DNA of 64,000 bases from Candidatus Saganbacteria bacterium (GTDB lineage: Bacteria > Margulisbacteria > WOR-1 > O2-12-FULL-45-9 > XYB2-FULL-48-7), in NCBI GenBank assembly GCA_016939335.1, contig JAFGHC010000030.1:15230-79229 (forward strand), written 5' to 3'. Below, piece after piece: positions 20,861-63,797 of the stretch; positions within the stretch are counted from its first letter, which is position 1; each line of letters starts with the position of its first letter. The translations under genes and the position numbers were made by a program. The notes beneath the pieces are model-generated. The model made no database searches. It was not told where the DNA came from and saw only the letters and a program-made list of their open reading frames with translations.

Positions 20861-21250
20861 TTAATTGTCTAATTGCGCCGAAGCCTTGGTCAGTATACTG
20901 CTCAAGATATTCCTTAATTCAAGGCTTTCCCGCAATAAGTCGTCAATTTCTTTCTTGTTCACTTCATTTTCCAATAATCCGACCTCTTTCACTATTCTAA
21001 GCCAATAAGTGGTTTCCCTCGCTTCTCTTCGGGCAATTCCCATTTTATAAATAAAATCCTTTTTGGAATGAGCGTCGTCCGCTTCTTCCACGTTCGCGCC
21101 AATCGACGTCCCCGCCGCCATTAATTGTTCCCCCAGCTTAAAGCCCGCCGTGCTCTTAGGGAAGGCCATCACGAGCTTTATGATCCTCAAGCTAAAATCA
21201 AAAGTCCTGTCTTTTATATCAAACTTTTTTCGCTCTATTTTATTTCCCAT
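20861..21250 (-). CDS. Four-helix-bundle protein (23S rRNA intervening-sequence protein family)
   Basis: 129 aa; all-helical, K/E-rich, central GTSIGANVEEAD..ARRE motif typical of the S23-IVS/four-helix-bundle family; AT-rich relative to flanks; bracketed by inverted repeat arrays. Confidence 0.6.
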   Translation of the reverse strand: MGNKIERKKFDIKDRTFDFSLRIIKLVMAFPKSTAGFKLGEQLMAAGTSIGANVEEADDAHSKKDFIYKMGIARREARETTYWLRIVKEVGLLENEVNKKEIDDLLRESLELRNILSSILTKASAQLDN

Positions 21251-21338
21251 TTGTTTAATTGTTTAATTGTGATTTGTTTAATTGTTTAATTGTGATTTGT
21301 TTAATTGTTTAATTGGGTTTTGTTTAATTGTTTAATTT
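21251..21338. repeat. Array of about 8 TTGTTTAATT units (24-nt super-unit TTGTTTAATTGTTTAATTGTGATT twice, plus variants)
   Basis: Direct tandem repeats read from sequence; inverted relative to the 20763-20846 array; overlaps the 3' end of rfbF. Confidence 0.8.
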
Positions 21339-32910: not shown

Positions 32911-33624
32911 TCACCGGTTCTCGGCAAGGTACTCCTTTACGGCTTTTAAGCTCGTTTCCCTAAGCCTTAATTTCGGCCTAACAAAGCGCGGCGACCAGGC
33001 GCTCAACCCGAGCAGATCGTAGGTCACCAAAACCTGACCGTCGCAAGCCGGTCCCGAACCGATCCCGATCGTCGGGATTTCTAGCGCGTTCGTGATCTTT
33101 TCCGCCAGCCGCGGCTCGACCATTTCCAGCACGATCGCAAATACGCCGGCCCGCTCCAGCGCCCTGGCCTCTTCGATCAGCGCTTCAGACTTCACGACGG
33201 ACGGCTTGACGCTGGTTTGCGGCAAATAGCCAAGGTGACCCATGACAGGTATCCCCGCGGCAATTATCTTCTTGATCTGCCCAAGCTCCTTTGTCCCCTC
33301 CACTTTCACGGCCTCCGCGCCGGCCCGGACCAGCTTGCGGGCATTGGCAGCGGAAAGCGAGCGGAACGGCATATCGGCCGCCAGCAGCGCCCGCTTCACT
33401 CCCTGGCCCGCGGCTTTTGTGTGATGCAGCATATCCGCCATCGTCACGCCGCGAGTGTCCGGCAAGCCCAGAATGACATTGCCCAGCGAGTCGCCGACCA
33501 GCACGATATCGACCCCCGCCTCATCCAGGATCTGCGCGATAGGATGATCGTAAGCCGTCAGCATTACGACCTTTCGATTTTCTGATTTCGAATTTCGTAT
33601 TTTCTGTGCTGTTATTTTTTCCAT
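32911..33624 (-). CDS. panB: 3-methyl-2-oxobutanoate hydroxymethyltransferase
   Basis: 237 aa; VMLTAYD..VLVGDSLGNVILG motifs, collinear with E. coli PanB. Confidence 0.85.
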   Translation of the reverse strand: MEKITAQKIRNSKSENRKVVMLTAYDHPIAQILDEAGVDIVLVGDSLGNVILGLPDTRGVTMADMLHHTKAAGQGVKRALLAADMPFRSLSAANARKLVRAGAEAVKVEGTKELGQIKKIIAAGIPVMGHLGYLPQTSVKPSVVKSEALIEEARALERAGVFAIVLEMVEPRLAEKITNALEIPTIGIGSGPACDGQVLVTYDLLGLSAWSPRFVRPKLRLRETSLKAVKEYLAENR

Positions 33625-35743: not shown

Positions 35744-36486
35744 ATGACAAAAGTCGACAGTAATTTCCGGCCCGTTTATCTCAAGCCTCTGACCGGCAAT
35801 AAATTTGCCGGTCACCTCCTCTCTTCAACCGATTATATCGACCGGATCAGAGTGCAGCAAACCGATCATAAATCCACGGCTAGATGCTCCGAAGAATTTC
35901 TGGACGGGCTGATGTCCGGCCGCGGCCCCGGTCAGCCAGGATTATTGATCGGCCTGGCCAGCGATTGCTTGTCTAAAAAAATAATCCACTGGGTGGAATA
36001 TGTCGGCCTGGCGCAAGACCTTCGCGATTGGTCACGGGAATTCGTACTTTGTTCTTATATTCATGCCGTCAAAGGCAATGATTGGACACCCGGTTTTTTG
36101 ATCGACGGCCTGCGGGAAGAAAAAACGAATCCTTACTGTTTTCCAAGACCGCAGGTCGCCACCGTGGCGCGCGGACTGGTCCACCATCCCTATCAAACGG
36201 TCTTTCTCAATTACTCTCATCCGAACGGAACGCCGTTGACCGGGCTGGAGCATTTTGCCTTTTTAACCTATGCGTTAGGGTATCTAAAATTATCTTCCAG
36301 CGAGATGGATTTTAACTGCAAAAACGATCTCGCGAAGGTTTTTCTCTTAAGCATGGCCAAAAAATTGCCGGAAAAAGAAAAAGGTGAATTAAAAAAATTG
36401 CTCCTGACCGCCACGCCGCAAACCACCAAGACCGCCTCAAGACCGATCAGCGGAGAGTGGCGCCGGCGGCCGACCCCGGTAAAAAC

Positions 36487-36490
<4 letters not shown>
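35744..36490 (+). CDS. Hypothetical protein
   Basis: 248 aa ORF, only plus-strand gene in the first 38 kb; no recognisable motif. Confidence 0.4.
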
Positions 36491-38061
<1,571 letters not shown>

Positions 38062-38090
38062 GGGGGGTGGGAACTAAAACGGGAACCGGT

Positions 38091-38714
38091 TTATCCCCAG
38101 AGTCTTCGAGGATCAAAACCTTGCTTGACTAGCATGTTAAATATGTCGAAACAATACTTGTGATAGGCGGCTTGCGCGGCAAGCCTGTCACCGGACGCTC
38201 TCAATTGCCCCTGCAACTCCAGTGCTTTTCCCGGCCCTCCTTCCACCAAGGTATCATCGGCCAAGATTTTATCGATCGCCTCAAAAATATCTCGCCGATC
38301 AGCATACAGCTCGGAGCCGCTTTGAAAATCGACGCGTCTATAGCCCCCGGGCAAATAGCTATGGAAATTATTCAAATAATTACGGAAGCCTTCGCACAGG
38401 TCTCTATCATTGTAATCATCGGGATGTCTCAAAAGATGCACCAGCCTCCGTTGATGCGCGCCGGCCTGTTCATCATGGTAGACATAATTCGGCGATCTTA
38501 AGACGTAAAAACAAATACTATAATAAGGATCGTTCCTAAATTTTTTGATCGTTCTAGCCGAGAGCGAACGCAACCCCATATGTTTCGCGAAATTGACCAC
38601 CACTCCCAAGGGATTAGCCCCTTCCAAAACCACCGGACGGCTCATCTTGTGCCACCTCTGCAGCTCAAGTTTGCCCGCCCGGATCGATTTAAAAGGAGAA
38701 ACATCTAAGTTCAT
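38091..38714 (-). CDS. Hypothetical protein
   Basis: 207 aa ORF divergent from fic; no recognisable motif. Confidence 0.4.
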   Translation of the reverse strand: MNLDVSPFKSIRAGKLELQRWHKMSRPVVLEGANPLGVVVNFAKHMGLRSLSARTIKKFRNDPYYSICFYVLRSPNYVYHDEQAGAHQRRLVHLLRHPDDYNDRDLCEGFRNYLNNFHSYLPGGYRRVDFQSGSELYADRRDIFEAIDKILADDTLVEGGPGKALELQGQLRASGDRLAAQAAYHKYCFDIFNMLVKQGFDPRRLWG

Positions 38715-38878
38715 GACACATATACATCGACGGATTTGAGCGTAAATTGCATAGATAGTGTGGTTTTTGGCGCTTAGTGAACTTGGTGCCTTTGTGCCTT
38801 AGTGGTAAATTTTAAAAAGGGGGATTTTACCACCAAGACACTAAGGCACGAAGGGCACGAAGAAGCTTAACACAACCC

Positions 38879-38908
38879 TTGACGCAAACTTGACGCTTAT
38901 GCTACAAT
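38879..38908 (+). promoter_or_regulatory. Sigma-70 promoter of fic (TTGACG-18-TGcTACAAT, extended -10), leaderless configuration
   Basis: TTGACG 38879-38884, TGc 38900-38902, TACAAT 38903-38908; fic ATG at 38915, about 7 nt after the -10, so the TSS is about at the ATG. Confidence 0.5.
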
Positions 38909-38914
38909 CCCCAC

Positions 38915-39934
38915 ATGTTTAAACCGGTCTACCGGATCACGCCGTACCTGTTAAACCTGATCGACGAGGCCAGCGCGCTCAAGACCTGGGTCGAGCTGGC
39001 GCCGCTGCACGTCGCCTGGCTGCCGCGGATGCAGAAAGAGGCCAAATCAAAGCTCGCCCACTTCTCCACTTCGATCGAAGGGAACCCGCTCAACCTCCAT
39101 CAGGTCAAAGCGATCGCCCGCGGGGAAACCATCGGCGCGGAAAAGCAGGCAGAGCTGGAGGTCGCCAACTACCTGAAGGCGATGCACTGGATCGAACAGC
39201 ACGGCCAGAAAGCGATCAGCGAAGGGACGATCTTCGAGCTCCACCGGACCATCACCCGCGGTCTGCTGGCGCCGGAGAAGGTCGCAACTTACAAGGCGAA
39301 GCAGAATTATGTCCTGGACAACAACAAGATCAAAGTTTACACCCCGACTTCGCCCAAAGAGACGCCGCAGGCGGTGCGCGACCTGCTCGCCTGGTCTAAC
39401 AGTGTGGAAGCCGCCCAGCTGCATTCCGTGCTGGTTTGCGCGATCTTCCATCACCGTTTCGTTTCCATCCATCCGTTCAGCGACGGCAACGGCCGCTTAG
39501 CGCGGGCGTTAGGGACCCTGGTCCTTTATCAAAAGGAGTTCGATCTCCACCACATTTTCAGCCTGGACGAATTCTTTGCCGGCGACCGGCAGAGATATTA
39601 TCAGAAGCTCCAGCAAGCGCGCGACCTCGACAACGATCTGACTTACTGGATCGAATATGTGGCGGAGGGGGTCGTTGCGACTTTAAGAAAGGTCAAAAAG
39701 CGGATCGAAGACCTGCAGGTCTCGACCCTGCACCCGCTCACCCTCTCGCCGCGGCAAGAGGACGCTTTGCGCCTCCTGCGCAACGCCCACTCCCTTCATG
39801 TCACCGAGTTGATCGAAGAGTTGAAGGTCTCCCGCGCGCGGATCAACCAGATCATCGGGCCGCTGGTCGAAAGCGGGCTGGTCACAAAGGAAGGCCGTAG
39901 CCGCGCGACGAGGTACAGGCTGAATATCAACTAG
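38915..39934 (+). CDS. fic: Fic/DOC family protein, class II (N-terminal inhibitory helix) with C-terminal winged-helix domain
   Basis: 339 aa; Fic motif HPFSDGNGRLAR (HxFx[DE]GNGRxxR), N-terminal alpha-inh motif FSTSIEGN ([ST]xxxE[GN]); C-terminal wHTH. Confidence 0.85.
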   Translation: MFKPVYRITPYLLNLIDEASALKTWVELAPLHVAWLPRMQKEAKSKLAHFSTSIEGNPLNLHQVKAIARGETIGAEKQAELEVANYLKAMHWIEQHGQKAISEGTIFELHRTITRGLLAPEKVATYKAKQNYVLDNNKIKVYTPTSPKETPQAVRDLLAWSNSVEAAQLHSVLVCAIFHHRFVSIHPFSDGNGRLARALGTLVLYQKEFDLHHIFSLDEFFAGDRQRYYQKLQQARDLDNDLTYWIEYVAEGVVATLRKVKKRIEDLQVSTLHPLTLSPRQEDALRLLRNAHSLHVTELIEELKVSRARINQIIGPLVESGLVTKEGRSRATRYRLNIN

Positions 39935-39940
39935 CAAACT

Positions 39941-39998
39941 GAAATTCGAAATACGAATAACGAAATACGAAGGAATATCGAAATTCGAATTTCTGATT
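39941..39998. repeat. Copy of GAAATTCGAAATACGAA-based dispersed repeat (half-element; ends in 14-bp palindrome GAAATTCGAATTTC)
   Basis: About 85% identical over about 50 nt to the left half of the element at 45023-45188. Confidence 0.6.
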
Positions 39999-40234
39999 TA
40001 AGCCCCCTGGGTTTTAATGAACCCCTTGACCGCTTCCATGATCTCGATCGGCACGGCCCTGTTAAACATCTTTACCCCTCCCGCTCGATTGCTAACATAC
40101 CGCCTGGCCAGGTCGCTAATTTCCTGGCTGGTCGGTATCCCTAAATTGTCGTTGTCGTCTGGCATGGGAGAAAGCATAGCATAGAGAAAAAGCAACAACA
40201 CAATGTCAACAGAATCATACCAACAACATTGCAA
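39998..40234 (-). CDS. Small hypothetical protein (low-GC island)
   Basis: 78 aa ORF; real start probably the internal MLSPMPDD; weak evidence. Confidence 0.25.
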   Translation of the reverse strand: MQCCWYDSVDIVLLLFLYAMLSPMPDDNDNLGIPTSQEISDLARRYVSNRAGGVKMFNRAVPIEIMEAVKGFIKTQGA

Positions 40235-40336
40235 GAGATAATATGTCTTATAGAATAACTAGCTGGACAGCCTACTAGTGATTTGACCTGACCACGTAAT
40301 ATACGAATTAATACATAAATATTATTGCAACAACCG

Positions 40337-40702
40337 TTATCTTAATTTAATTAGCTTACTAATTATTTGAAGAGCATTGAAAAAATCAAGACAATAACCC
40401 ATCACAATCGAAAGGATCGCAATACACAAACCTGTCACCCAGAAACTCTTATGTCTAATCTGTACGGCCGCCGCAATCCATAAAATAATCAGGAACTCAA
40501 GAATTATGGTAATTTCCTTATATGGAACAAGAATATTCAAGCGGAGTAGCACGGAACAAATAATAAATAGCATAACAGGAATAGCCAGCCAGATTATGTT
40601 TACCTCTTCCCCTATGTCAAGTAATTCATCCTTATTAAACCCCAAGTTTAGGCAAAGACCCTTTATTTCTTCAGGAGATCCTTCCATCCCCATAAATTTC
40701 AT
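40337..40702 (-). CDS. Small integral membrane protein (3 predicted TM helices), low-GC island
   Basis: 121 aa; hydrophobic stretches IIWLAIPVMLFIICSVLL, ITIILEFLIILWIAAAV, VTGLCIAILSIVMGY; about 35% GC versus about 60% flanks. Confidence 0.5.
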   Translation of the reverse strand: MKFMGMEGSPEEIKGLCLNLGFNKDELLDIGEEVNIIWLAIPVMLFIICSVLLRLNILVPYKEITIILEFLIILWIAAAVQIRHKSFWVTGLCIAILSIVMGYCLDFFNALQIISKLIKLR

Positions 40703-40703
40703 A

Positions 40704-41090
40704 TTATAACCTTTGAACTTGTCCTGGGAATAGAATTGTTTTTACATCCTCTTGGACTCGTTGCTCATTCCATTGATTGGGGGAATCATCCTTAATTAAA
40801 ATCACTCTATTAGGGTCCATAACAAAATTTGTTCCAGAAAAATGAAAAGAAGACAATGTCCCCTGAAAAGCATTTTGATTAATATTATTCAATGCATTAG
40901 AAAGGGCCCCCGAAGTCTCTTCGTAATTATCACAGGACGTTCCACTGGGAATAAATTTCACTTCTATAATTGCCCCGTCCTTTAAGCATGGATATATATT
41001 CGTCTGAATTCCAATATTTGGCTTTAAGTGCGAAGAAACATTCCTCCTGAAATTATTCACATAATTCTGTAATACTTCTTTATCATCCAT
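40704..41090 (-). CDS. Hypothetical soluble protein, low-GC island
   Basis: 128 aa ORF immediately upstream of, and co-oriented with, the membrane protein; N/Q/S-rich. Confidence 0.45.
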   Translation of the reverse strand: MDDKEVLQNYVNNFRRNVSSHLKPNIGIQTNIYPCLKDGAIIEVKFIPSGTSCDNYEETSGALSNALNNINQNAFQGTLSSFHFSGTNFVMDPNRVILIKDDSPNQWNEQRVQEDVKTILFPGQVQRL

Positions 41091-41193
41091 CTTTTAAGCC
41101 CTCCTAATCGAGAAAATAGAATATTAGCTCAAATATTATCAAAGCAAGAATTCAACCACAACCAAAAAACACTAATAAGTAATACCGATTTCG

Positions 41194-41207
41194 CCCCCCC
41201 CCCCCCC
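41194..41207. repeat. Homopolymeric poly-C/poly-G tract (14 nt)
   Basis: CCCCCCCCCCCCCC at 41194-41207, abutting the TAG stop of 41207..42184 and about 100 nt upstream of the 40704..41090 gene. Confidence 0.9.
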
Positions 41208-42184
41208 TATTTACTGATCTGATCTGTAATCCTGGTTATTTCAAATCCGGATATCGTAGAATCTTTCGATGATACGAAGCCCGTATCGCCAGATTCAAAT
41301 ATTGATTTCGTCGCTTGAATCAATACAGCATCTTTGGTTTTCGAGTCAGAACTTGCTTGAACAAAAGATTGAAACGTCTTTAAACAATTTTCACGATGCT
41401 TATTTAAAGTATATAAGTGCATATTCGCGCTGTAATTTTTTACTATTTGATAAAACACAACCGAGAAAAATGATAAAAGAAGGATTTTTGCTATGAAAAT
41501 TTGTATTGAAAGCTGGAAATCAACCCCCTTTTCCAGGGTAACCATTAGCTGGCTAATAATCCACCATAAAAACCAGCCTATTAGGGCAACCGATACCACT
41601 ACAGCCCAAAACCACTTATCAGCAAGCCTCTTATTTTCTTGAGCCTGAGTCCTAAACACATCGGCGTACCTGCTCACGCCCGTTTCAGCAGACGCCTCTT
41701 TCATCGCATTTATGATTGCATCAGCAGCACGGCTTTTCTCCTCAATGGAATCAAGAAGCGCTTTAGTTCGTCCTTCCAGAAATTTGGCATAATCTTCAAC
41801 TCCTATTTTATCAATAGAATTCTCCAAAAGACTAATTTTCAAAGGATCATAAAACAAATTGGCCATATTCTGGTACTCATTAAGGAATACGTTAATCAAA
41901 TTTTTTCTTTCTGATGCTGGGTCGGACTTATTCTGAGGAACATAATTTTGTATATCTCTTATAATTAAAAGATAATGATTAAACGAAGCAACAATACTGC
42001 TTTTAGTATTTGTTGGCAGAATTGACCATAATGATTCATTCTTTTCTAATCTTCTCCAATTTTGATAAGATTCTTTAAGTAATGGATAGATATCTACAAA
42101 ATCAAAGTCCTTCCCTTCTCTTTTGAGTTGTTCAATGTCTATATTTTTTAATTTTTCAAATTGGTCTTTTAGTTGCTCTATCAT
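41207..42184 (-). CDS. Hypothetical 2-TM protein (N-terminal helical domain, central TM hairpin, C-terminal Ser/Thr-rich tail), low-GC island
   Basis: 325 aa; TM hairpin WFWAVVVSVALIGWFLWWIISQL .. IFIAKILLLSFFSVVFYQIV; no recognisable catalytic motif. Confidence 0.5.
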   Translation of the reverse strand: MIEQLKDQFEKLKNIDIEQLKREGKDFDFVDIYPLLKESYQNWRRLEKNESLWSILPTNTKSSIVASFNHYLLIIRDIQNYVPQNKSDPASERKNLINVFLNEYQNMANLFYDPLKISLLENSIDKIGVEDYAKFLEGRTKALLDSIEEKSRAADAIINAMKEASAETGVSRYADVFRTQAQENKRLADKWFWAVVVSVALIGWFLWWIISQLMVTLEKGVDFQLSIQIFIAKILLLSFFSVVFYQIVKNYSANMHLYTLNKHRENCLKTFQSFVQASSDSKTKDAVLIQATKSIFESGDTGFVSSKDSTISGFEITRITDQISK

Positions 42185-42260
42185 ATTTTCTCCTTGGCAC
42201 CTTTATTCACAATTCTAATTCTCCCACCCCCCTCTTTTGGTGTCAACGGTTGAGGAAAAT

Positions 42261-42287
42261 GGGATATGGGGTATGGGCATAAAGCCC
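42261..42287. repeat. GGGATATGGGGTATGGGCATAAAGCCC dispersed repeat, copy 1
   Basis: Shares GGGGTATGGGC..AAGCCC with 44931-44954 (same orientation). Confidence 0.5.
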
Positions 42288-42332
42288 GCACTACTCGCTC
42301 AAGTGATCGTTTGCGGAGGAACTTTCAGTCGC

Positions 42333-42734
42333 TCAGAATTCCCACCAGTGACGTGTTCGCCATCCTAATAGGGAATCGGAAGACTGGTCCATTGCCGGTC
42401 GCTCTGGCGCGTAATTTCTTGGAACTCGGTGATCTCGGCGCATTAACTTTGTAACGAGCGGACCGATCGCGGGATCGCTCGAGAAAAGATTGCCGGCGTC
42501 CCGCAGCCATTCTCCTATGCGGGTCTTTAACAAATCCTTATCTTTTGTAGTAGTCCTTAACAGGGCTTCTCCATATTGACGAAAAGCAGCGCGGTCACTG
42601 ACCGCCGGGACCGATCTGTCGAGGAAGCTGCCGGTCGCCTTTTTGGCCGGACCACCGGCAACAGCTTCTATCTTTTTAAACATGGCGGTAATTTGCTCCG
42701 GGCTTGGTCTGCGGGGTCCAACACGATGAGCCAT
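42333..42734 (-). CDS. Hypothetical protein
   Basis: 133 aa high-GC ORF; no motif recognised. Confidence 0.35.
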   Translation of the reverse strand: MAHRVGPRRPSPEQITAMFKKIEAVAGGPAKKATGSFLDRSVPAVSDRAAFRQYGEALLRTTTKDKDLLKTRIGEWLRDAGNLFSSDPAIGPLVTKLMRRDHRVPRNYAPERPAMDQSSDSLLGWRTRHWWEF

Positions 42735-43164
42735 AATAATACTCCTTTTTATTTCGCCGGCTTTAATACCAGCGTAATCCGGCTACGAAACATTATCTTG
42801 CCTTAATTTAGAAAATTTCAGGGGATTTTATTAGGGCTACTGACTTGGAGGACTTTGAAGTGCCTTGCGGGTCTTGCGGTTGCGATGCGCGTTTCGATTT
42901 GCGTCAACCCCTGACCAGCCCCAATTCCCCTGAAATCCCTTTATTAATATCATGATATACACCCGGAGCTAAGAGATGCCAGGAACAGTAGGAAGAACAA
43001 TCATATTGCCGCCCGGCGCTGGAAAAGAAAATCTCCAGCCGGTCAGGGACGCGGTCAAAAAAAACCTGGCGGGCATGGAAAGCCTGTGAGGCCGGAACTT
43101 CTCCGGTATCGTCAGCTCAAGTATCAACCAACCGGGCGCCCTAGCCAGGGAAATACTGGGCACG

Positions 43165-43431
43165 ATGTCCCTGGTCCTGCGGCAGTGCCCCGTTTTGGGA
43201 ACAGACGGAGCACCCGGCGCAAGGACCTACTTCGCTCACCCGATGGCCTTTTTCCGGGCCGAGGCTCATTTACTGCGCGATCTGGGCGAATGTTTGGCCC
43301 CGGACAATTATGCCCCCGGCCTGCTTAAAAGTATCATTGGTGAAAGATCCGAACTGTATAAATTGGAAGTACGCGTCCCCGCCGATCCGGCGGGCGGAAG
43401 CTGGCTCCGGCGAGATCATTATGACAAATAA
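43165..43431 (+). CDS. Small hypothetical protein
   Basis: 88 aa ORF whose 3' end overlaps by 11 nt the ATG (43421) of the next ORF. Confidence 0.25.
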   Translation: MSLVLRQCPVLGTDGAPGARTYFAHPMAFFRAEAHLLRDLGECLAPDNYAPGLLKSIIGERSELYKLEVRVPADPAGGSWLRRDHYDK

Positions 43432-44167
43432 TCTGAAATTCCCGGCCGGCCGCGCGGAAATACATCCGGCGGTATTTCTCGCGCGGAGGCAAGTAAATAT
43501 GGTTTTAGACATCCGTCCAGTTAACCCGCGGCTCATCGCACAACTGGCCAAGAGCCGGGTCAGGCCGGAACAGGTCAGCAATGTGCTTAACTGCCCGCAC
43601 CTGCTGGACAGATTTCGGGTGCTCACCCCATCCGCGATGCAAAAGCTCAACGGGGATGATCGCTGGCTGCAACGGATTGAGGCTGATCTGTCGGCCAACC
43701 CTATTCTGGATCAATCTTCGCTGATAATCATGCGAACGCAATTGGATGTCAGTGAATTTACTGACGGCAAAGGCAAGGTGCTTTATTACGGCGCTTGTTG
43801 CTACAATAAAGCCGACCGCGCGCTCTTCCGGCAAATGCAGGCCGACTATTCCTGTTCCTTTGAGGCGATCGCGCTTGAAATGAAAGAGAGATACGGGATT
43901 GAACTGGAAACTGACACCCCGATCACGGAGATGCCGCTGGAAATAAAAGCGTACTACTTTCTCGATCAGGAGTTCGGGCTGGGCGCGAGGCTACAAACCG
44001 CCGGTGTTGAGCGGATCGCGATCCAGGCGGCGGGAGAAAAGCCTTTTATCAGCGGGGAAGTCTGGAAAAGAACCGTTCACCTCCCTTTCTCTTTTCTTAA
44101 CCGAACCGGCCCATACGAAATAAAAGATAGCCTCGTGCGCTTGTTACCCGTTCGGCCTTCGGCCTGA
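43421..44167 (+). CDS. Hypothetical protein
   Basis: ORF track frame 43310..44167; preferred ATG at 43421 (MTNNLKFPAGRAEIHPAVF..); about 249 aa; no motif recognised. Confidence 0.4.
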   Translation: MTNNLKFPAGRAEIHPAVFLARRQVNMVLDIRPVNPRLIAQLAKSRVRPEQVSNVLNCPHLLDRFRVLTPSAMQKLNGDDRWLQRIEADLSANPILDQSSLIIMRTQLDVSEFTDGKGKVLYYGACCYNKADRALFRQMQADYSCSFEAIALEMKERYGIELETDTPITEMPLEIKAYYFLDQEFGLGARLQTAGVERIAIQAAGEKPFISGEVWKRTVHLPFSFLNRTGPYEIKDSLVRLLPVRPSA

Positions 44168-44189
44168 TCGAGCGAACGCCGCGCAACAG

Positions 44190-44906
44190 CTATTTTGCTG
44201 CGCTTCTGATTATCCCGATATCCCGGACAATGACCTCGCCGCAATAAAGCGGTCCGTCGGCCTTATAAAAACCTTTCTTCGGCGCTACAAAAGTCACGGT
44301 CTTGTCCGCCCGCACCGCCATCCCCATCACCCGCCCGGTATCGGCGTTCAGCCCTGATGGGACATCGACCGAAACGACCGGGATCTTTGAGCGATTGATC
44401 ATCTCGATCGCTTTGCGATAAAGGCCGGCAACCGGCGTATTCAACCCGATCCCAAAGAGCGCGTCAACGATCAGGCCGGCTTGCGCGATATCTTTCAAGC
44501 CTTTTGCTGTGCTGACCCACCTGACCTTCTCCAGCATTTTAACAAGGGCATCGAGGTTGATCTTGGCATCGTTCTTCAGCTTGGTTTTTTCGCCAATGAC
44601 GAAAACTTTTATTTCGCGGCCGGCATTCAGGAGGTGGCGCGCGGCGGCAAAACCATCCCCGCCATTATTGCCGGTGCCGCAAACAACCGCGATCTCTCCC
44701 CTGCCCGCGCACGCCTCCGCCACGCTTCGGCCGGCATTTTCCATGAGGACAATAGAAGGGATCCCCAGCTTCTCCTGGGCGAATTTATCAAAGGCCTGCG
44801 CCTGGCGGACGGAGATCGCCTTGTTTCTCATGTTCGGTAATATTGTACTATACATTTCGCGTTCTGACGAAATTCCGCCGCTTTTCCGCTTATTAAGCGT
44901 GAACAC
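44190..44906 (-). CDS. nnrE: NAD(P)H-hydrate epimerase (YjeF N-terminal domain only)
   Basis: 238 aa; ..AVVCGTGNNGGDGFAAARHL..VVSVDVPSG motifs of the YjeF_N domain; likely start MRNKAISV. Confidence 0.7.
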   Translation of the reverse strand: MFTLNKRKSGGISSEREMYSTILPNMRNKAISVRQAQAFDKFAQEKLGIPSIVLMENAGRSVAEACAGRGEIAVVCGTGNNGGDGFAAARHLLNAGREIKVFVIGEKTKLKNDAKINLDALVKMLEKVRWVSTAKGLKDIAQAGLIVDALFGIGLNTPVAGLYRKAIEMINRSKIPVVSVDVPSGLNADTGRVMGMAVRADKTVTFVAPKKGFYKADGPLYCGEVIVRDIGIIRSAAK

Positions 44907-44930
44907 GGCTGGTAATAAAATTGCTAGATT

Positions 44931-44976
44931 GGCAAAGGTGCGGGGTATGGGCTTATGGAAAGCCCTAGTCGGGTAT
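44931..44976. repeat. GGGGTATGGGCTTATGGAAAGCCC + partial second GGGTATGGGGTATG unit, copy 2 of dispersed repeat
   Basis: Read from sequence; immediately precedes the MITE-like element at 45023-45188. Confidence 0.5.
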
Positions 44977-45022
44977 GGGGTATGAGGAGGGGAATATGGC
45001 GGAAGCTAAAGAGTTGACGCGT

Positions 45023-45188
45023 GAAATTCGAAATACGAATCTCGAAATACGAAATAATATCGAAATTCGAAGTGTTTCCCGTTTCTAATTTGCTTTCTTT
45101 CGCATTTCCTTCGAATTTCGGAATTCGAGTTTCGTATTTTGTCTTATTCGTATTTCCTTCGAACTTCGAAATTAGTATTTCGTATTTT
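45023..45188. repeat. MITE-like imperfect palindromic element built from TTCGAAATACGAA / TTCGTATTTCGAA units
   Basis: The left half (GAAATTCGAAATACGAATCTCGAAATACGAAATAATATCGAAATTCGAAG) and the right half are inverted copies of each other; the left half is about 85% identical to 39941-39998. Confidence 0.6.
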
Positions 45189-45293
45189 AAGGGGGCATCT
45201 CCCTTTAGCTTGACGCAAACCTGACAAATGGCCGTGTTGCCGAACGGGCCCGGCATTGTATTTTAGGCCTTTTACTGCTAAAATCCGTCTATA

Positions 45294-45938
45294 ATGGATT
45301 TATTTTCGAATGAACCTGATCTGCTCTCTCTCCCATACGAGGAAGTCGAGAAGATCGCCCTTGATTGTAAAAAATGCCGCCTGGCTAAAGGCCGGACCAA
45401 AGTCGTCTTCGGCAGCGGCCCCGTCCCCTGTGACCTGATGCTGATCGGCGAGGCGCCGGGAGCGGACGAAGACCTGCAGGGGCTTCCTTTCGTCGGCCGG
45501 GCCGGGCAACTCTTAACGCAGATCCTCGCTTCGGTCGGGATCAAGCGGCCGGACGACATCTACATCGCCAATACGGTCAAGTGCCGGCCGCCGGAGAACC
45601 GCGCGCCGCAGGCCGACGAACAAGCGGCCTGCGCTCCTTACCTCGAGGCGCAGATCCATTTCGTCAAGCCGAAGATCATCCTGCTGGCCGGCTCGCCGGC
45701 GATCAAAGCGGTCCTGAAGACCGACCAGCCGATCACCGGCCTCCGCGGCAAATGGCTCAAGCTTCAGGGGACGGAAATTTCCGTCATGCCGATCTTCCAC
45801 CCCGCCTACCTGCTGCGCAACCCTTCCAAAGAAAAAGGGAAACCGAAATGGCTGACCTGGCAGGACATGCAGGAGGTCAAGAACGCGCTGGAGTATCATC
45901 GTAAGGTTGAAGAGTTATCGAGGGAAAGTGAGAATTAG
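45294..45938 (+). CDS. udg: Uracil-DNA glycosylase, family 4
   Basis: 214 aa; GEAPGADEDLQGLPFVGRAGQLL motif, CxxC..C Fe-S ligands (CKKCRLAKG..C). Confidence 0.85.
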   Translation: MDLFSNEPDLLSLPYEEVEKIALDCKKCRLAKGRTKVVFGSGPVPCDLMLIGEAPGADEDLQGLPFVGRAGQLLTQILASVGIKRPDDIYIANTVKCRPPENRAPQADEQAACAPYLEAQIHFVKPKIILLAGSPAIKAVLKTDQPITGLRGKWLKLQGTEISVMPIFHPAYLLRNPSKEKGKPKWLTWQDMQEVKNALEYHRKVEELSRESEN

Positions 45939-45973
45939 GCATACCTCCCTCACCCGCTGTCACAAACCGTCCC

Positions 45974-45994
45974 CCCTCTCCCAGAGGGAGAGGG
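45974..45994. repeat. GC hairpin CCCTCTCCC-AGA-GGGAGAGGG (REP-like palindrome family)
   Basis: 9-bp stem with 3-nt loop; related copies at 46020-46044 and 32796-32820. Confidence 0.6.
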
Positions 45995-46019
45995 TAATAC
46001 ATATTGCTAGCCTGCAAAT

Positions 46020-54028: not shown

Positions 54029-54209
54029 GTTAATTTTACCATAACCGGGAGGATATCAGGTTATCAGAGAATCAGGGCGCAGATGATCAGTAAATCAGAA
54101 GATCAGGAAGAATAACTGATAACCTGGTATTCTGATCTCCCACCCTCTGATATCCTGATATTCTGATATCCACATTTGCGCACCTGTCGTCAATAATTAA
54201 AACGCGGAT

Positions 54210-58912: not shown

Positions 58913-59006
58913 TTATCGTCCTTTCTATGTCAATGAGAATAAGGCAACTTTTTAACTCTTTTTATTTTTAATTTTTTATTCTTAATTTTTTATTTTTGAT
59001 TTTATT

Positions 59007-59402
59007 TTAGACCTGCATCTGGGTTATTTCTTTTATCGTCGAGACCGTCGTATTGACGGTCGTGACCGCCAGGGTCTCCAGCACGCTCAATTTCGACTGG
59101 GCGATCATCACGTCGGCCAGTTCCGCCTGACCATGGGCATATTTATCGATCAACTGATTGGTGTAAACCTCGGCGCGGCTGACGCCGTTGAGCTTATCGA
59201 TCGCCTGGCCCAGCAGGTCATCAAAGGGGTTGCCGGAAAAAGCGGTCCGGGCCGCCGGCGCGGAGGCCGCCGTCGCCGACGGGAAAACCGGCGCCTGGGC
59301 CACCACGGGCGCCTGATCCAGAAAATTATTACCATTATTGCTGTCGCCGATCAGCTGGGCCAGTCTTTCTTCCGCGCTGAGCGGTCCGATCGCCTCGATC
59401 AT
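59007..59402 (-). CDS. fliE: Flagellar hook-basal body complex protein FliE
   Basis: 131 aa; C-terminal ..ELADVMIAQSKLSVLETLAVTTVNTTVSTIKEITQMQV typical of FliE. Confidence 0.75.
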   Translation of the reverse strand: MIEAIGPLSAEERLAQLIGDSNNGNNFLDQAPVVAQAPVFPSATAASAPAARTAFSGNPFDDLLGQAIDKLNGVSRAEVYTNQLIDKYAHGQAELADVMIAQSKLSVLETLAVTTVNTTVSTIKEITQMQV

Positions 59403-61204: not shown

Positions 61205-62365
61205 TTAGATGACCTCCAGCGGCGCCTTGAGCGCGCCGCTCTTCTTCATCGCCTGCAGGATCGAGATCAGGTCCTTGGGCGAGGCGCCGATCGTGTTGAG
61301 CGCCCGCACCAGCACCGCCAGGCTGGGCGCGGCCGGCACCAGCGTCAGCTGCGCCGACGAACGCTTGAGGCGCGCCTTGGTCGACGACTGGTAACGCTGC
61401 TGGCCGCCGGCCGTGTAATCGGCCGTGTCGGTCGTATCGCCGACCGAATAGATCGAAACGTCGCCGATGGCGACATCGATGCCGCTGTAAGAGACGGCCA
61501 CCGGGGCGATCACCACGTTCTCGCCGATCACCACGGTGCCGGTCCGTTCATTGATCACGATCTTGGCCACGGTGTCGGGTGAGACGGCCAGGTTCTCGAT
61601 CCGCGCGATCATGGGGACCAGTTCGCCCTCGATCGCCACGGTCACGGTGGCCGCGTCCTGGGGAGTAGCGGAAAAACCGGCATTGCTGATGGCGGCCGCC
61701 ACCCGGCTGGCGGTGGTAAAGTCCGGTTCGTTCAAAACGATAGTGATCCCGCCTTTCCCTTCAAGCGTCACCGGCACTTCTTTTTCGACCAGCGCCCCTT
61801 CCGGTATCCGGCCGACGGTCACCTGGCGCGGCCGGACGTAGGGAACGCTGGGATACGAGGCATCGGCACCGACCACCAGGTTCCCCTGCGCCACGGCGTA
61901 AACCTGGTCATCAACCCCCTGGAGCGGCGTGATGAGGAGCGTCCCGCCCTGCAGCGAGGTGGCGTCGCCGAGCGACGAAACGGTCACGTCAAGTTTCTGG
62001 CCGGAGCTGACAAAGGGCGGCAGCACCGCCGTGACCATGACCGCCGCCACGTTGCGCGACCTGAAATCGACCGACGGCGGCACGACCCCCATGCGCGACA
62101 TCAGGTTGGTGACCGCCTGCTGGGTAAAGCTCGACTGGTTGCGGTCGCCGGTATTGTTCAGGCCGACCACCAGGCCAAAGCCCATCAACTGGTTCTCGCG
62201 CGCCCCCAGGATGTGGGCAATGTCTTTAAGACGGACCGCCGGAGAAGCGCCATAAGCGACAGCGACAAATGACAAATTACAAACAACAAACAATATCAAA
62301 ATAATAAATATTTTAAAATTTAAAACTTGGAAATTGTTTGTCATTTGATGCTTGTTATTTGTCAT
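61205..62365 (-). CDS. flgI: Flagellar P-ring protein FlgI
   Basis: 386 aa; signal peptide, RLKDIAHILGARENQLMGFGLVVGLNNTGD signature. N-terminus has the MTNN..MTNN direct repeat; start may be the second Met (62344). Confidence 0.85.
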   Translation of the reverse strand: MTNNKHQMTNNFQVLNFKIFIILILFVVCNLSFVAVAYGASPAVRLKDIAHILGARENQLMGFGLVVGLNNTGDRNQSSFTQQAVTNLMSRMGVVPPSVDFRSRNVAAVMVTAVLPPFVSSGQKLDVTVSSLGDATSLQGGTLLITPLQGVDDQVYAVAQGNLVVGADASYPSVPYVRPRQVTVGRIPEGALVEKEVPVTLEGKGGITIVLNEPDFTTASRVAAAISNAGFSATPQDAATVTVAIEGELVPMIARIENLAVSPDTVAKIVINERTGTVVIGENVVIAPVAVSYSGIDVAIGDVSIYSVGDTTDTADYTAGGQQRYQSSTKARLKRSSAQLTLVPAAPSLAVLVRALNTIGASPKDLISILQAMKKSGALKAPLEVI

Positions 62366-62379
62366 TTGTGTGTGCGCTC

Positions 62380-63003
62380 CTAAAAAATCCAGTTAAAGAG
62401 CCTCGTCAGCCAGCCGGGCTGGGCGGTATCGGAAACGGCGCCGCTCCCGCTCACGGTCAGCTCGGCGTTGGCCACCTGATAGGAATAGACGGTATTGGAC
62501 CCGGCTATGTCCTTGGGCCGGACGGTGCCGGTCAGCGTGATCTCCTGCATCTCATCGTTGACGTTGACCTTGTGGCGCCCCTTGATCAGCAGGTTGCCGT
62601 TGGGCAGGACCTCGATCACCCAGGCGGCGATCCGCGCCTGAACGTTGTTCCCCCGCACCGTCGAGCCGTCGCCGGTGTAAAGATTCTGCAGCTGGCCGTT
62701 CGCCTGGGTGTTCAAGCCGATGACCGGCGCCAGCCGCTGCATCGTGTGGGTGAACTTGGCGCTCAAATTGTCGGTCACGTTGGCCTTGGTCGTCGCCTGG
62801 TTCTTGGCCGAAGTGTTCTCCAGGATCACGACGTTAATGATGTCGCCGACCTTGTAAGCTTTGGCGGGGGAATAGGGCGAAGCGCTGTCCTCGTTCCAGA
62901 GCGAATTGGCACCCGCCGCTCCGGCCAGGGCCAGCCAGCAAACGCCAAGCATTAAAAAATACTTTTGACTTTTGACTTTTGACTTTTGACTTATTGTTCT
63001 CAC
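62380..63003 (-). CDS. flgH: Flagellar L-ring protein FlgH
   Basis: 207 aa; GTG start overlapping the flgA stop (alternative ATG at 62952); YKVGDIINVVILENTSA..LTVSGSG motifs of FlgH. Confidence 0.8.
   Translation of the reverse strand: MRTISQKSKVKSQKYFLMLGVCWLALAGAAGANSLWNEDSASPYSPAKAYKVGDIINVVILENTSAKNQATTKANVTDNLSAKFTHTMQRLAPVIGLNTQANGQLQNLYTGDGSTVRGNNVQARIAAWVIEVLPNGNLLIKGRHKVNVNDEMQEITLTGTVRPKDIAGSNTVYSYQVANAELTVSGSGAVSDTAQPGWLTRLFNWIF
62962..62989. repeat. Heptanucleotide tandem repeat (CTTTTGA)x4 at the 5' end of flgH
   Basis: ACTTTTGACTTTTGACTTTTGACTTTTGACTT read from sequence. On the minus strand it encodes QKSKVKSQK if the GTG start is used. The 7-nt unit is not a multiple of 3. 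Confidence 0.85.
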
Positions 63004-63797
63004 TGGACCTTGACCTCGACTTCCCCGGCGGCGACAACTCTGGCCGGCAAAATTTTATTGGAATCCTTGCGCTTGACCTTGATCTCCGCGCCGAGCACCC
63101 CGTCCTCCTCCGCCCGGGCCTTGACCTTGACCGTCAGGCCCGGCGCCGCCACTGTCAGCGTCACTTCGTCGCCGCGGTGCACCAGCGGCACCGCGCCGAT
63201 CATCCATTCAAAGACCGTACTGTTGTCGGGGACCGAGATCTTGGCCTCCTGGCTGATCAGGCGGTCAAAAGCCGTGAAATATTTCGGCGGCAAGAGCGCC
63301 ACGTCGCGCTCGTCAAGCTTGAGGTCATCCGGCCCGATCAGCGTCCCTTTCTTGATCAGCCGGGCCGCCGCCACGACGTTCTTGAACACCTCGACCTTGG
63401 CCCGCACCAGGTATTTACGGCCGCCGCTTTCGCAGGAAGCCACGAGCGGGAAGACCACGCTGCCGACCGGACGAAAATCGGGGTAGACCTCGAGCACCTC
63501 CAAGCTGACCGTTTCGGGCAGTTCCTTCATCTCGGCAAAAATACCCTCCGCCTGCCTGAAGGTCAGGTCAATCCGGTCGTTGGCCCAGTCGGGATACCTG
63601 CCCACGACGTAGTTCCTGATCGTCTCGCTGACCCGCTGCTCCGGGTCGTCGAGCGCGCGACAAAACGACAAATGGCCAAGGACCAATGACCAATTAACGA
63701 TTATTGCCAGCAGCAGCAACGCCCTGCCGACCGGACAAAACCGCAGAATTAATTCTGCGGTTTTTGTTCTTGCTTTAAATTCAATCGTGCCCTTCAT
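63000..63797 (-). CDS. flgA: Flagellar basal-body P-ring formation protein FlgA (SAF domain)
   Basis: 265 aa; signal peptide, C-terminal SAF-like ..GDEVTLTVAAPGLTVKVKARAEEDGVLGAEIKVK.. Confidence 0.65.
   Translation of the reverse strand: MKGTIEFKARTKTAELILRFCPVGRALLLLAIIVNWSLVLGHLSFCRALDDPEQRVSETIRNYVVGRYPDWANDRIDLTFRQAEGIFAEMKELPETVSLEVLEVYPDFRPVGSVVFPLVASCESGGRKYLVRAKVEVFKNVVAAARLIKKGTLIGPDDLKLDERDVALLPPKYFTAFDRLISQEAKISVPDNSTVFEWMIGAVPLVHRGDEVTLTVAAPGLTVKVKARAEEDGVLGAEIKVKRKDSNKILPARVVAAGEVEVKVQ

Follow-up and report, generated by a model that had tools for sequence, protein, structure and literature searches.

In a 64-kb stretch of DNA from a metagenome-assembled genome of Candidatus Saganbacteria—to the whole of which stretch we refer as the window—a block of about 2 kb with a low content of guanine plus cytosine (GC) lies between the genes for a Fic protein and for a uracil-DNA glycosylase (UDG), and encodes a membrane protein of 325 amino acids (aa), a soluble protein of 128 aa, and a second membrane protein of 121 aa. 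The window was assigned to a 124,912-bp contig of that genome through exact matches with the NCBI proteins JW873_05750/55/60. We found that this island is absent from the corresponding interval of five related genomes and that it is composed of two modules—the 325-aa gene and the 128/121 pair—which elsewhere occur independently of each other. Our reading is that the island is acquired hotspot DNA, a mosaic made of two mobile modules that are independent of each other, both of which would be membrane-acting conflict elements, and to that reading taken as a whole we attribute a probability of about 0.5; a promoter element belonging to the hotspot would drive the transcription of both modules on the minus strand. 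The foreign, horizontally acquired nature of the 2-kb block is well supported, whereas the argument for a defence or addiction role of its modules, and for the membrane mechanism suggested below, is circumstantial.

The low-GC island and the Fic–UDG interval

In the composition profile the GC content fell to 0.29–0.41 between approximately 40000 and 42300, the surroundings ranging from 0.50 to 0.65. Upon refinement of the edges by homology, the island proper extended from 40184 to 42226 (2043 bp) with 35.1% GC, as compared to 55.0% in the left flank (36000–39934), 53.7% in the right flank (42249–46000), and 54% in the entire window; so that the block of approximately 35% GC reported in the original prediction was real, while the background against which it stands contains about 54–55% GC and not 60%. 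Such a deviating composition (35.1% versus approximately 54–55%) is one of the properties by which genomic islands are recognized. On the left, the homology with the DNA upstream of Band_7 in two related loci (L053 and L137) stopped at 40183, and on the right a 22-mer conserved in the hotspot started at 42227. The three genes, all on the minus strand, were present as open reading frames (ORFs) exactly as predicted, and a hydropathy scan agreed with the earlier description of their products as a 325-aa protein with a hairpin of two transmembrane segments, a soluble 128-aa protein, and a 121-aa protein with three transmembrane segments.

The gene adjacent to the island (38915–39934, plus strand, 58.9% GC) had been predicted to encode a class II Fic protein, which assignment was borne out by matches to Fic in Pfam (2.2e-16) and to SoFic in PADLOC (4e-51), as well as by the presence in the same chain of the sequences STSIEG at residue 51 and HPFSDGNGRLAR at residue 186; that is, both the N-terminal inhibitory (S/T)xxxE(G/N) and the HxFx(D/E)GNGRxxR motifs that define the class. 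The protein, with a C-terminal winged helix, scored 63.7 bits against the NCBIfam SoFic equivalog, whose cut-off is 550, and on the basis of its sequence is to be regarded as SoFic-like, not as a SoFic equivalog.

For the comparison among strains we used a cluster of Fic proteins at 90% identity, which cluster comprised nine sequences, and the contigs available from five of them, with six loci in all. The Fic protein was 90–93% identical across the six contigs. The DNA synteny detected by blastn between the window and the related Fic–UDG loci (L052, L053, L135, L137, and L138) reached the Fic stop codon (39934) and restarted at the start of the UDG gene (45294–45938, plus strand; at the UDG, in L052, L135, L137, and L138), which gene—recognized by Pfam in the related loci—constitutes a conserved right anchor. 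Between the two anchors, the window contains the remnant of a Band_7 gene, the 121-, 128-, and 325-aa genes, a 133-aa gene, a 285-aa gene, and a YjeF_N gene; L052 contains genes for 51, 188, and 278 aa, and then a beta-lactamase-fold gene; L135 and L138 contain a 188-aa gene, a DUF5678 gene, a retropepsin-like gene, more small genes, a methyltransferase, and an SBF transporter; L137 contains a DNA-alkylation-repair gene, a 535-aa gene, a Band_7 gene, a relative of the 285-aa gene, a bAvd gene, and a methyltransferase; and L053 contains an intact Band_7 gene, beyond which the contig ends. No relative of the 325-, 128-, or 121-aa protein is encoded in any of the five related Fic loci. This comparison of presence and absence among strains, which the original prediction had proposed as a check, thus indicated that the island is missing from five relatives with Fic proteins of 90–93% identity, each of which carries different genes instead. 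An ancestral housekeeping origin of the island is ruled out by the same comparison.

The Fic–UDG interval is therefore a hypervariable hotspot of Saganbacteria genomes, the DNA upstream of Fic being likewise variable among the related genomes. Since the Fic gene has a native composition and is conserved in all six loci, we consider it a resident anchor and not part of the cargo, as opposed to the original prediction, in which it was counted with the cassette. Because of the sharp GC step and of the site being empty of the island in close relatives, the horizontal acquisition that had been proposed from the outset was sustained.

No recombinase was recognized by Pfam or NCBIfam among the scanned proteins encoded between 38091 and 44906; the sole tRNA that Rfam identified in the window, a tRNA-Arg, is 7 kb away from the island; and Rfam returned no RNA family in 39800–42500 at E <= 1. 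The integrase or transposase, the tRNA target, and the island-specific direct repeats that also characterize genomic islands were consequently not found here, nor was there, around the island, an attC-like repeat or an integrase of the kind that accompanies integron cassettes.

The left limit deserves a separate consideration, because the original prediction had assigned to the island a 78-aa peptide and had placed the edge of the low-GC DNA against a repeat. The corresponding ORF (39998–40234, minus strand, TTG start, 48.5% GC) contains, in 39998–40183, what is left of a Band_7/SPFH gene after an internal deletion of approximately 780 bp: at the DNA level 40020–40058 matched L053 11060–11097 (92%) and 40061–40183 matched L053 11880–11998 (75%), while residues 22–58 and 60–78 of the translation corresponded to the N- and C-termini, respectively, of the Band_7 genes that in L053 and L137 encode 314/316 aa. 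By these alignments the 78-aa ORF is an internally deleted native Band_7 gene, intact in the relatives, and hence host backbone; for which reason the low-GC DNA starts only at about 40184 and does not abut the repeat.

The 325-aa family

The first module is the single gene located at 41207–42184 on the minus strand. Its product is arranged as a cytoplasmic helical N-domain (residues 1 to ~190), a membrane hairpin (~191–249), and a juxtamembrane C-domain (251–305). A first search yielded 50 homologous proteins of approximately 320 aa and a genome scan 38 loci, and the close and distant sets of sequences proved to be one family (hhalign probability 100). The conservation of the alignment columns was about 0.5 in the N-terminal part, the second membrane helix reached 0.69, and residues 251–305 reached 0.80; the residues F177, W191, S238, H256, N261, H263, R264, and G302 were invariant in the family alignment; within the tail, the motif H-x4-N-x-HR (H256-x4-N261-x-H263-R264) is near-invariant. 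The AlphaFold2 (AF2) model of the protein was all-helical, with a predicted local-distance difference test (pLDDT) of 82.7.

Loci of this family were found in the Thermodesulfobacteriota, Actinomycetota, Verrucomicrobiota, Bacteroidota, Nitrospirota, Acidobacteriota, Planctomycetota, Pseudomonadota, and Bacillota (Megasphaera), and in the candidate phyla Parcubacteria and Kaiserbacteria. Since in 42 of 43 loci the homolog had a lower GC content than the flanking DNA, with a mean difference of 8.8 points, the family looks foreign in its hosts.

The nearest annotated family was DUF6161 (PF19658), whose profile positions 84–212 aligned with residues 177–306 of the 325-aa protein—the hairpin and the helices after it—with 16.5 bits and E = 0.0063, under the gathering cut-off of 27. 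Among the 41 close members of the family two touched that model, and among the 31 distant ones a single sequence did; in view of such a score and so few matches the 325-aa family would be at best a distant sister of DUF6161, not a member. The literature on DUF6161 consists of a single paper that mentions it (bioRxiv 10.1101/2025.01.08.631966), in which a DUF6161-carrying family of the Pseudomonadota, without known defence features, was flagged as predicted antiphage by ESM-DefenseFinder.

Restriction–modification (RM) and other defence genes were recurrent in the vicinity of the homologs. Our survey, which covered three genes on either side, revealed eight N6_N4 methyltransferases, along with N6_Mtase, C5 methylase, Eco57I, ResIII, BsobI, the type I R subunit, Gabija GajB, BREX BrxP, DRT, and PDC-S15. 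The N6_N4 methyltransferases accounted for 8 of 210 neighbours of the 325-aa genes, as against none among the top 25 families next to the 128/121 pair (counted as 0/150; Fisher p = 0.023). In L001 and in L006 (= L016) the 325-aa gene follows a methyltransferase/endonuclease pair at a distance of 2–3 nt, and the ORF calls gave the same placement in L015. A methyltransferase plus a DUF6996/DUF6997 endonuclease constitute such a pair at L015 6390–8933, L016 6390–8960, and L018 176–2941. Between Thermodesulfobacteriota and Rubritalea (Verrucomicrobiota) the methyltransferases are 92–94% and the endonucleases 83–84% identical, which identities imply that the pair probably moved between phyla in recent times; the 325-aa homologs attached to it are only 45–56% identical, and the gene order is permuted in Rubritalea.

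When plasmids were searched by tblastn with the 325-aa protein, one match only was returned, a distant one (22% identity, E = 3e-17) on the 311-kb plasmid pFP31 of Vibrio tubiashii (L013, 185360–202298). There the homolog stands as a single-gene cassette between attC-like repeats of approximately 130 nt ending in GCGTTAG, within a cassette array. The same array—an integron-style row of defence cassettes—holds in addition Hhe, an HEPN-associated protein, a 5'-nucleotidase, GIY-YIG, AbiH, and an AAA protein.

The linkage to RM and defence genes, the use as a lone cassette, the foreign composition, and the constrained membrane-proximal core led us to view the 325-aa protein as a candidate stand-alone factor of the inner membrane for phage exclusion or abortive infection, in which the variable cytoplasmic domain would sense the infection, while the conserved hairpin and tail would oligomerize and compromise the membrane. 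To a defence role of this gene we would concede somewhat less than an even chance.

The 128/121 pair, a promoter-like element, and the independence of the modules

The second module comprises the gene for the 128-aa soluble protein (40704–41090, minus strand) and that for the 121-aa protein (40337–40702, minus strand), which begins 1 nt past the stop codon of the former; the 121-aa product has a cytoplasmic N-terminus of about 35 residues followed by about three membrane helices. Through an exhaustive HMMER search, with clusters counted at 50% identity, the 128-aa family was found to contain 202 clusters, nearly all of them stand-alone proteins of 120–135 aa. The 128-aa protein matched phrog_18061 over its full length (2.8e-16) and had no match in Pfam, PADLOC, or NCBIfam, nor with any PDB sequence profile (nothing below E = 0.07), nor among plasmids by tblastn. 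As to fusions, one member of 447 aa (P0150) carries the 128-aa-family domain joined to an HNH endonuclease domain and a C-terminal region without assignment, and three others (P0216, P0181, and P0172) carry that domain C-terminally, after N-terminal regions that are in part Cys-rich.

A search for loci with 14 of the closer sequences of the 128-aa family provided 81 pair loci, of which 80 were metagenomic and one viral. In at least 51 of the 81, the gene that immediately follows the 128-aa homolog encodes a relative of the 121-aa protein. Genes were callable in 58 loci; the two genes overlapped by 4 nt in 41 of these, the length of the downstream partner was 101–133 aa in 57, and its predicted membrane helices numbered three in 43 loci and two in 13. 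The N-terminal motif MK.G..EG[ST]PEE, located in the cytoplasm, is conserved in the 121-aa family. By contrast with this constancy of two small adjacent genes kept as a unit, the contexts were variable, and the genes upstream of the pair were unrelated to one another across the 81 loci. Among the neighbours there were HepT/MNT, AbiJ, Shedu SduA_C, a type I S subunit, transposases, SRAP, and Cro/C1.

The original prediction had treated the island as a single operon or cassette of small membrane proteins. Nevertheless, none of the 81 pair loci contained a relative of the 325-aa protein or of DUF6680; and, conversely, the pair was not present in the 325-aa loci L001–L006 and L012, nor a 325-aa homolog in the pair loci L007–L011. 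Since the two are never found together elsewhere, the island is a composite, joining two modules that occur separately outside the window.

Certain loci of the pair raise the question of a phage origin; namely, that the island were a prophage remnant in which the pair was a holin/antiholin-like or lysis-control module and the 128-aa protein a relic resembling a gpU-like tail terminator. In three prophage-like contigs, L009 among them, the pair is found between a UmuC-like gene and a cluster with a lysozyme gene, and the 121-aa protein has the three predicted helices of a class I holin; but there the pair runs convergently to the lysozyme gene and the lysis genes, outside their operon and not among them, and the scans of the neighbouring proteins detected no endolysin near the island, nor are there further phage genes around it in the window. 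Moreover, a tblastn search of 50,697 phage genomes gave no match for the 128-aa protein, the 125-aa protein P0053, or the 325-aa protein, and a relative of the 128-aa protein was carried by just 1 of 2.9 million viral contigs. When L009 was compared with phages by megablast, the sole match was one of 88 nt to an Acinetobacter phage. The AF2 model of the 128-aa protein, furthermore, was of low confidence (pLDDT 56.5), and its comparison with BFVD by Foldseek was non-significant. We accordingly hold a phage origin of this kind to be very improbable.

The promoter scan identified upstream of the 325-aa gene a promoter-like site on the minus strand (42218–42246; TTGACA-17-GAGAAT with an extended TG, 10/12 matches), with which overlaps the 22-nt element TTGACACCAAAARAKGG (42227–42248), present once in the 64-kb window. 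That element recurs in L052 (11032–11055), directly after the Fic stop codon; in L137 (6822–6843), after the relative of the 285-aa gene; and twice in each of L007 and L008 (L007 808–824 and 944–960), between YjeF_N and the first gene of an island, where the L007 copy aligns with the promoter of the window. Every copy is placed at a cassette junction within the Fic–UDG/YjeF variable region, and from its sequence and positions the element looks like a hotspot-resident promoter ahead of differing cargo. In L052 and L137 the gene that the promoter-like element faces is convergent and meets it with its 3' end, as though the cargo had been lost.

L007 and L008, which originate from two other samples, carry relatives of both the YjeF_N gene and the pair of the window in the order YjeF_N, promoter element, DUF6680 (166 aa), 71-aa gene, 129-aa gene, and 121-aa gene, with identities to the window of 66% for YjeF_N, 75% for the 129-aa protein, and 69% for the 121-aa protein. 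The island block has there a GC content of 0.34–0.39, compared to 0.48–0.55 nearby, and is flanked by repeats of about 100 nt whose short unit differs from those of the window arrays. From this gene content we conclude that the window and these two loci have the promoter and the pair in common, but not the first gene. That the pair is low in GC in two lineages, whose copies are 26% different at the DNA level, could reflect either independent acquisitions or a long-standing resident that did not drift to the composition of the host.

The presence of the same promoter element and pair behind a different first gene in L007 and L008 could mean, against our reading of two separate modules, that the first gene works with the pair; in which event there would be one three-gene system with a swappable first gene (the 325-aa gene, or DUF6680 plus the 71-aa gene) and a fixed 128/121 pair. 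In agreement with such an arrangement, all the genes of the island are on one strand with one good promoter, and no terminator was predicted in the 116-nt spacer between the modules. That proposal is, however, at odds with the lack of a conserved upstream partner of the pair in the 81 loci, alongside which the 325-aa family never appears, and with the occurrence of the 325-aa family without the pair both as an integron cassette and in RM operons; in addition, a weak promoter-like site (41142–41113) precedes the pair. In our judgment a three-gene system is improbable.

With the modules taken as independent, the pair consists of a cytoplasmic alpha/beta protein of 128 aa translationally coupled to a three-helix membrane protein of 121 aa, and might constitute a toxin/antitoxin-like or a sensor/effector module, in which the 121-aa protein would be the membrane-damaging effector and its 128-aa partner would restrain or trigger it. 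A toxin/antitoxin-like or defence role of the pair is a proposal that we make tentatively, with less conviction than for the 325-aa gene.

Several observations weigh against the reading of the two modules as conflict elements, and a number of them would equally fit accessory DNA devoid of a role in conflict, be it strain-specific membrane or stress proteins or selfish, hitch-hiking DNA. In keeping with the original prediction that the three proteins belong to no recognized family, none of them passed the thresholds of Pfam, NCBIfam, or PADLOC; when the 325-, 128-, 121-, and 78-aa proteins were compared with the profiles of known defence systems (PADLOC-DB v2.0.0, 2023), no model was found at E <= 0.1, and no functional domain of the island proteins—be it defence, toxin, or enzymatic—was recognized in Pfam or NCBIfam. 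The predicted structures gave no clue to function, in that the AF2 model of the 325-aa protein had structural matches to generic coiled coils only, and a PDB profile search with its family retrieved nothing below E = 0.07; that is, no solved relative. Many homologs of both modules are situated among housekeeping genes. The defence signal of the pair is weak, and much weaker than for the 325-aa family. Viral contigs carry these families very seldom, with a relative of the 325-aa protein in 2 of the 2.9 million, to be added to the single contig with a 128-aa relative. The other variants of the hotspot, finally, are of a mixed nature (beta-lactamase fold, SBF transporter, methyltransferase, DNA-alkylation repair). 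Against the alternative of neutral cargo stand the enrichment of the 325-aa family in RM/defence neighbours, about ten-fold by our own estimate with respect to a background of 1–2%; the tight linkage of that family to RM operons across phyla; and the design of the pair, whose coupled small soluble and membrane proteins are typical of toxin/antitoxin or abortive-infection modules. We therefore deem a cargo without any conflict role unlikely, though deserving of more credit than a three-gene system.

A bolder version of our reading would state that both modules are new anti-phage families—the 325-aa one across at least eight phyla and the pair in 202 clusters—and that the Fic–UDG locus is a cassette platform without an integrase, where the fixed TTGACACCAAAARAKGG would drive cargo swapped between junctions with heptamer repeats; as a combined statement we find it doubtful. 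If either module were to block phage, a protein family missing from the catalogues of Pfam, NCBIfam, and PADLOC v2 would be added. The 325-aa family would in that circumstance be a compact one-gene membrane effector with defined invariant residues, and its linkage to type II RM operons suggests a second line of defence travelling with restriction systems; the pair, for its part, is widespread in environmental bacteria and wholly unannotated. The locus also illustrates, in a little-studied uncultured phylum, an organization of accessory genes around a Fic anchor, a hotspot promoter element, and repeat-marked junctions. Were the modules neutral cargo, we would be dealing with an ordinary strain-variable island.

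Surrounding repeats and genes, and comparison with known systems

The original prediction had also described the island as being bounded by dispersed repeats. On the left side, the GAAATTCGAAATACGAA repeat near 39941–39998 was real and had a second copy, the 50 nt at 39940–39989 being 92% identical to 45022–45071; and the 17-mer had 12 matches in the window with up to three mismatches, versus 0.45 expected. This repeat is part of a heptamer array with the unit GAAATAC (39936–39998) that was delimited by Tandem Repeats Finder (TRF) between Fic and the convergent minus-strand genes, and that forms an imperfect palindrome (RNA fold of -16.7 kcal/mol, z = -2.46). On the right side, past the promoter element, TRF detected a short heptamer array of ATGGGAT/GGGTATG (42259–42297) with a second copy at 44942–44971 (73% identity over 30 nt). 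The GGGGTATGGGC repeat said to mark the right edge was reduced to an 11-mer inside that short array, whose two occurrences were matched by 36 of 100 shuffles, and which was thus discarded as a boundary repeat for being at the level of chance. Both repeat types do reappear together, as had been indicated at about 44931–45188, in a composite array (44942–45188) between YjeF_N and UDG, in which GGGTATG units come first and palindromic GAAATWC units after them.

Arrays of this sort are not particular to the island. Other intergenic arrays of 7–8-nt units occupy 21249–21337, 33572–33602, 54050–54171, 58949–59008, 62264–62369, 62961–62992, and 63667–63694 of the window, with units that include TTGTTTAA, TTTCGAA, CTGATATC, TTTGTCA, ACTTTTG, and GACCAAT, among others, and that are often palindromic. 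Similar arrays are found at gene junctions of L052, L135, L137, and L138, both inside and outside the variable region, and the 7–8-nt arrays accordingly seem to be distributed throughout the genomes of these Saganbacteria. Because they are common to many intergenic regions, the flanking repeats do not constitute an island boundary; and GAAATTCGAAATACGAA as an attachment (att) site of the island is ruled out for the same reason. The arrays are disposed as nested direct repeats, the GAAATWC copies bracketing 5.1 kb with all that is between Fic and UDG, and the GGGTATG copies bracketing 2.7 kb with the 133-aa, 285-aa, and YjeF_N genes; recombination between array copies would, as judged from this disposition, delete the bracketed blocks. 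Either the TTGACACCAAAA element or the heptamer arrays may be a candidate cassette-exchange site in the Fic–UDG locus.

At the junction between the two modules there is a tract of 14 G residues on the coding strand (G14, or C14 on the plus strand; 41194–41207), which is the sole homopolymer of at least eight bases in the 64 kb. The internal poly-C tract of the original prediction is therefore real, though located outside the genes: its start is in the TAG codon that terminates the 325-aa ORF, and it belongs to the 116-nt spacer ahead of the 128-aa gene. The tract could be phase-variable, the scar of a recombination, or a poly-G artefact of sequencing or assembly. Poly-G is a known artefact of the two-colour Illumina chemistry, and the exact coincidence of the only long homopolymer with the junction of the modules, in a genome assembled from a metagenome, invites the suspicion that the low-GC DNA, or the join of the 325-aa gene to the pair, was misassembled. 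Nonetheless, the left side (pair, Band_7 remnant, and Fic) and the right side (325-aa gene, 22-mer, and relatives of the 133- and 285-aa genes) each connect independently to hotspot sequence, and the independent assemblies of two other samples show a low-GC pair beside YjeF_N; with which evidence an assembly artefact can be given little credence, comparable to that of a prophage remnant.

The 133-aa gene (42333–42734, minus strand) and the 285-aa gene (43310–44167, plus strand), both of native GC and without a family match, have relatives, respectively, in L137 (45% over 80 aa) and in L137 (76% identity) and upstream of Fic in L052 (31%). A 207-aa protein (38091–38714), also without a family match, has relatives of 32–41% identity in L052, L135, and L137; and the relatives of these three genes are scattered at differing positions in the variable regions of the related genomes. 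The gene for YjeF_N, an NAD(P)HX epimerase (44190–44906), lies within the variable region, and its counterpart in L007 (25–648) adjoins the related low-GC island; it is not in the Fic–UDG interval of L052, L137, or L138, and this housekeeping gene seems to move with, or to get lost from, the hotspot. The overlapping genes for DUF5678 (73 aa) and a retropepsin-like protein (133 aa) at L135 6248–6867 and L138 2068–2687 resemble another small two-gene module, and the hotspot of L137 holds a bAvd/23S_rRNA_IVP gene.

When compared with known systems, the 325-aa protein resembles DUF6161 in being an uncharacterized membrane protein, with a weak similarity over the hairpin, and in that the suspicion of a defence role for the latter comes from a language-model score; it differs in remaining under the gathering cut-off and in the small number of relatives that match. 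The intergenic arrays of Saganbacteria recall the STRR of cyanobacteria, which are heptanucleotide tandem repeats, in that they consist of 7-nt tandem units, often palindromic and of several types (GAAATAC, GGGTATG, TTTGTCA, GACCAAT, and ACTTTTG), whereas, as far as could be checked, no description of such repeats exists for Saganbacteria. With the integron cassettes of Vibrio the hotspot shares the swapping of genes behind a fixed promoter element, but the window is without attC-like sites or an integron integrase, and its junctions carry heptamer arrays that are genome-wide.

The RexA/RexB system of phage lambda is a two-gene abortive-infection module made up of a soluble sensor and a multi-helix membrane channel. 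The 128/121 pair is similarly a mobile combination of a small soluble and a small multi-helix membrane protein, of which one copy is next to phage lysis genes; its proteins, however, are much smaller (about 125 aa), are coupled through a 4-nt overlap, and have no similarity detected by PADLOC. Accessory genes linked to RM systems in defence islands, for their part, have been assigned to defence on the principle of guilt by association. The 325-aa gene of the window is not beside an RM system, its sole defence-type neighbour being the resident SoFic-like Fic, but its homologs conform to that pattern in being located 2–3 nt from methyltransferase/endonuclease pairs and near GajB, BrxP, DRT, Hhe, and AbiH.

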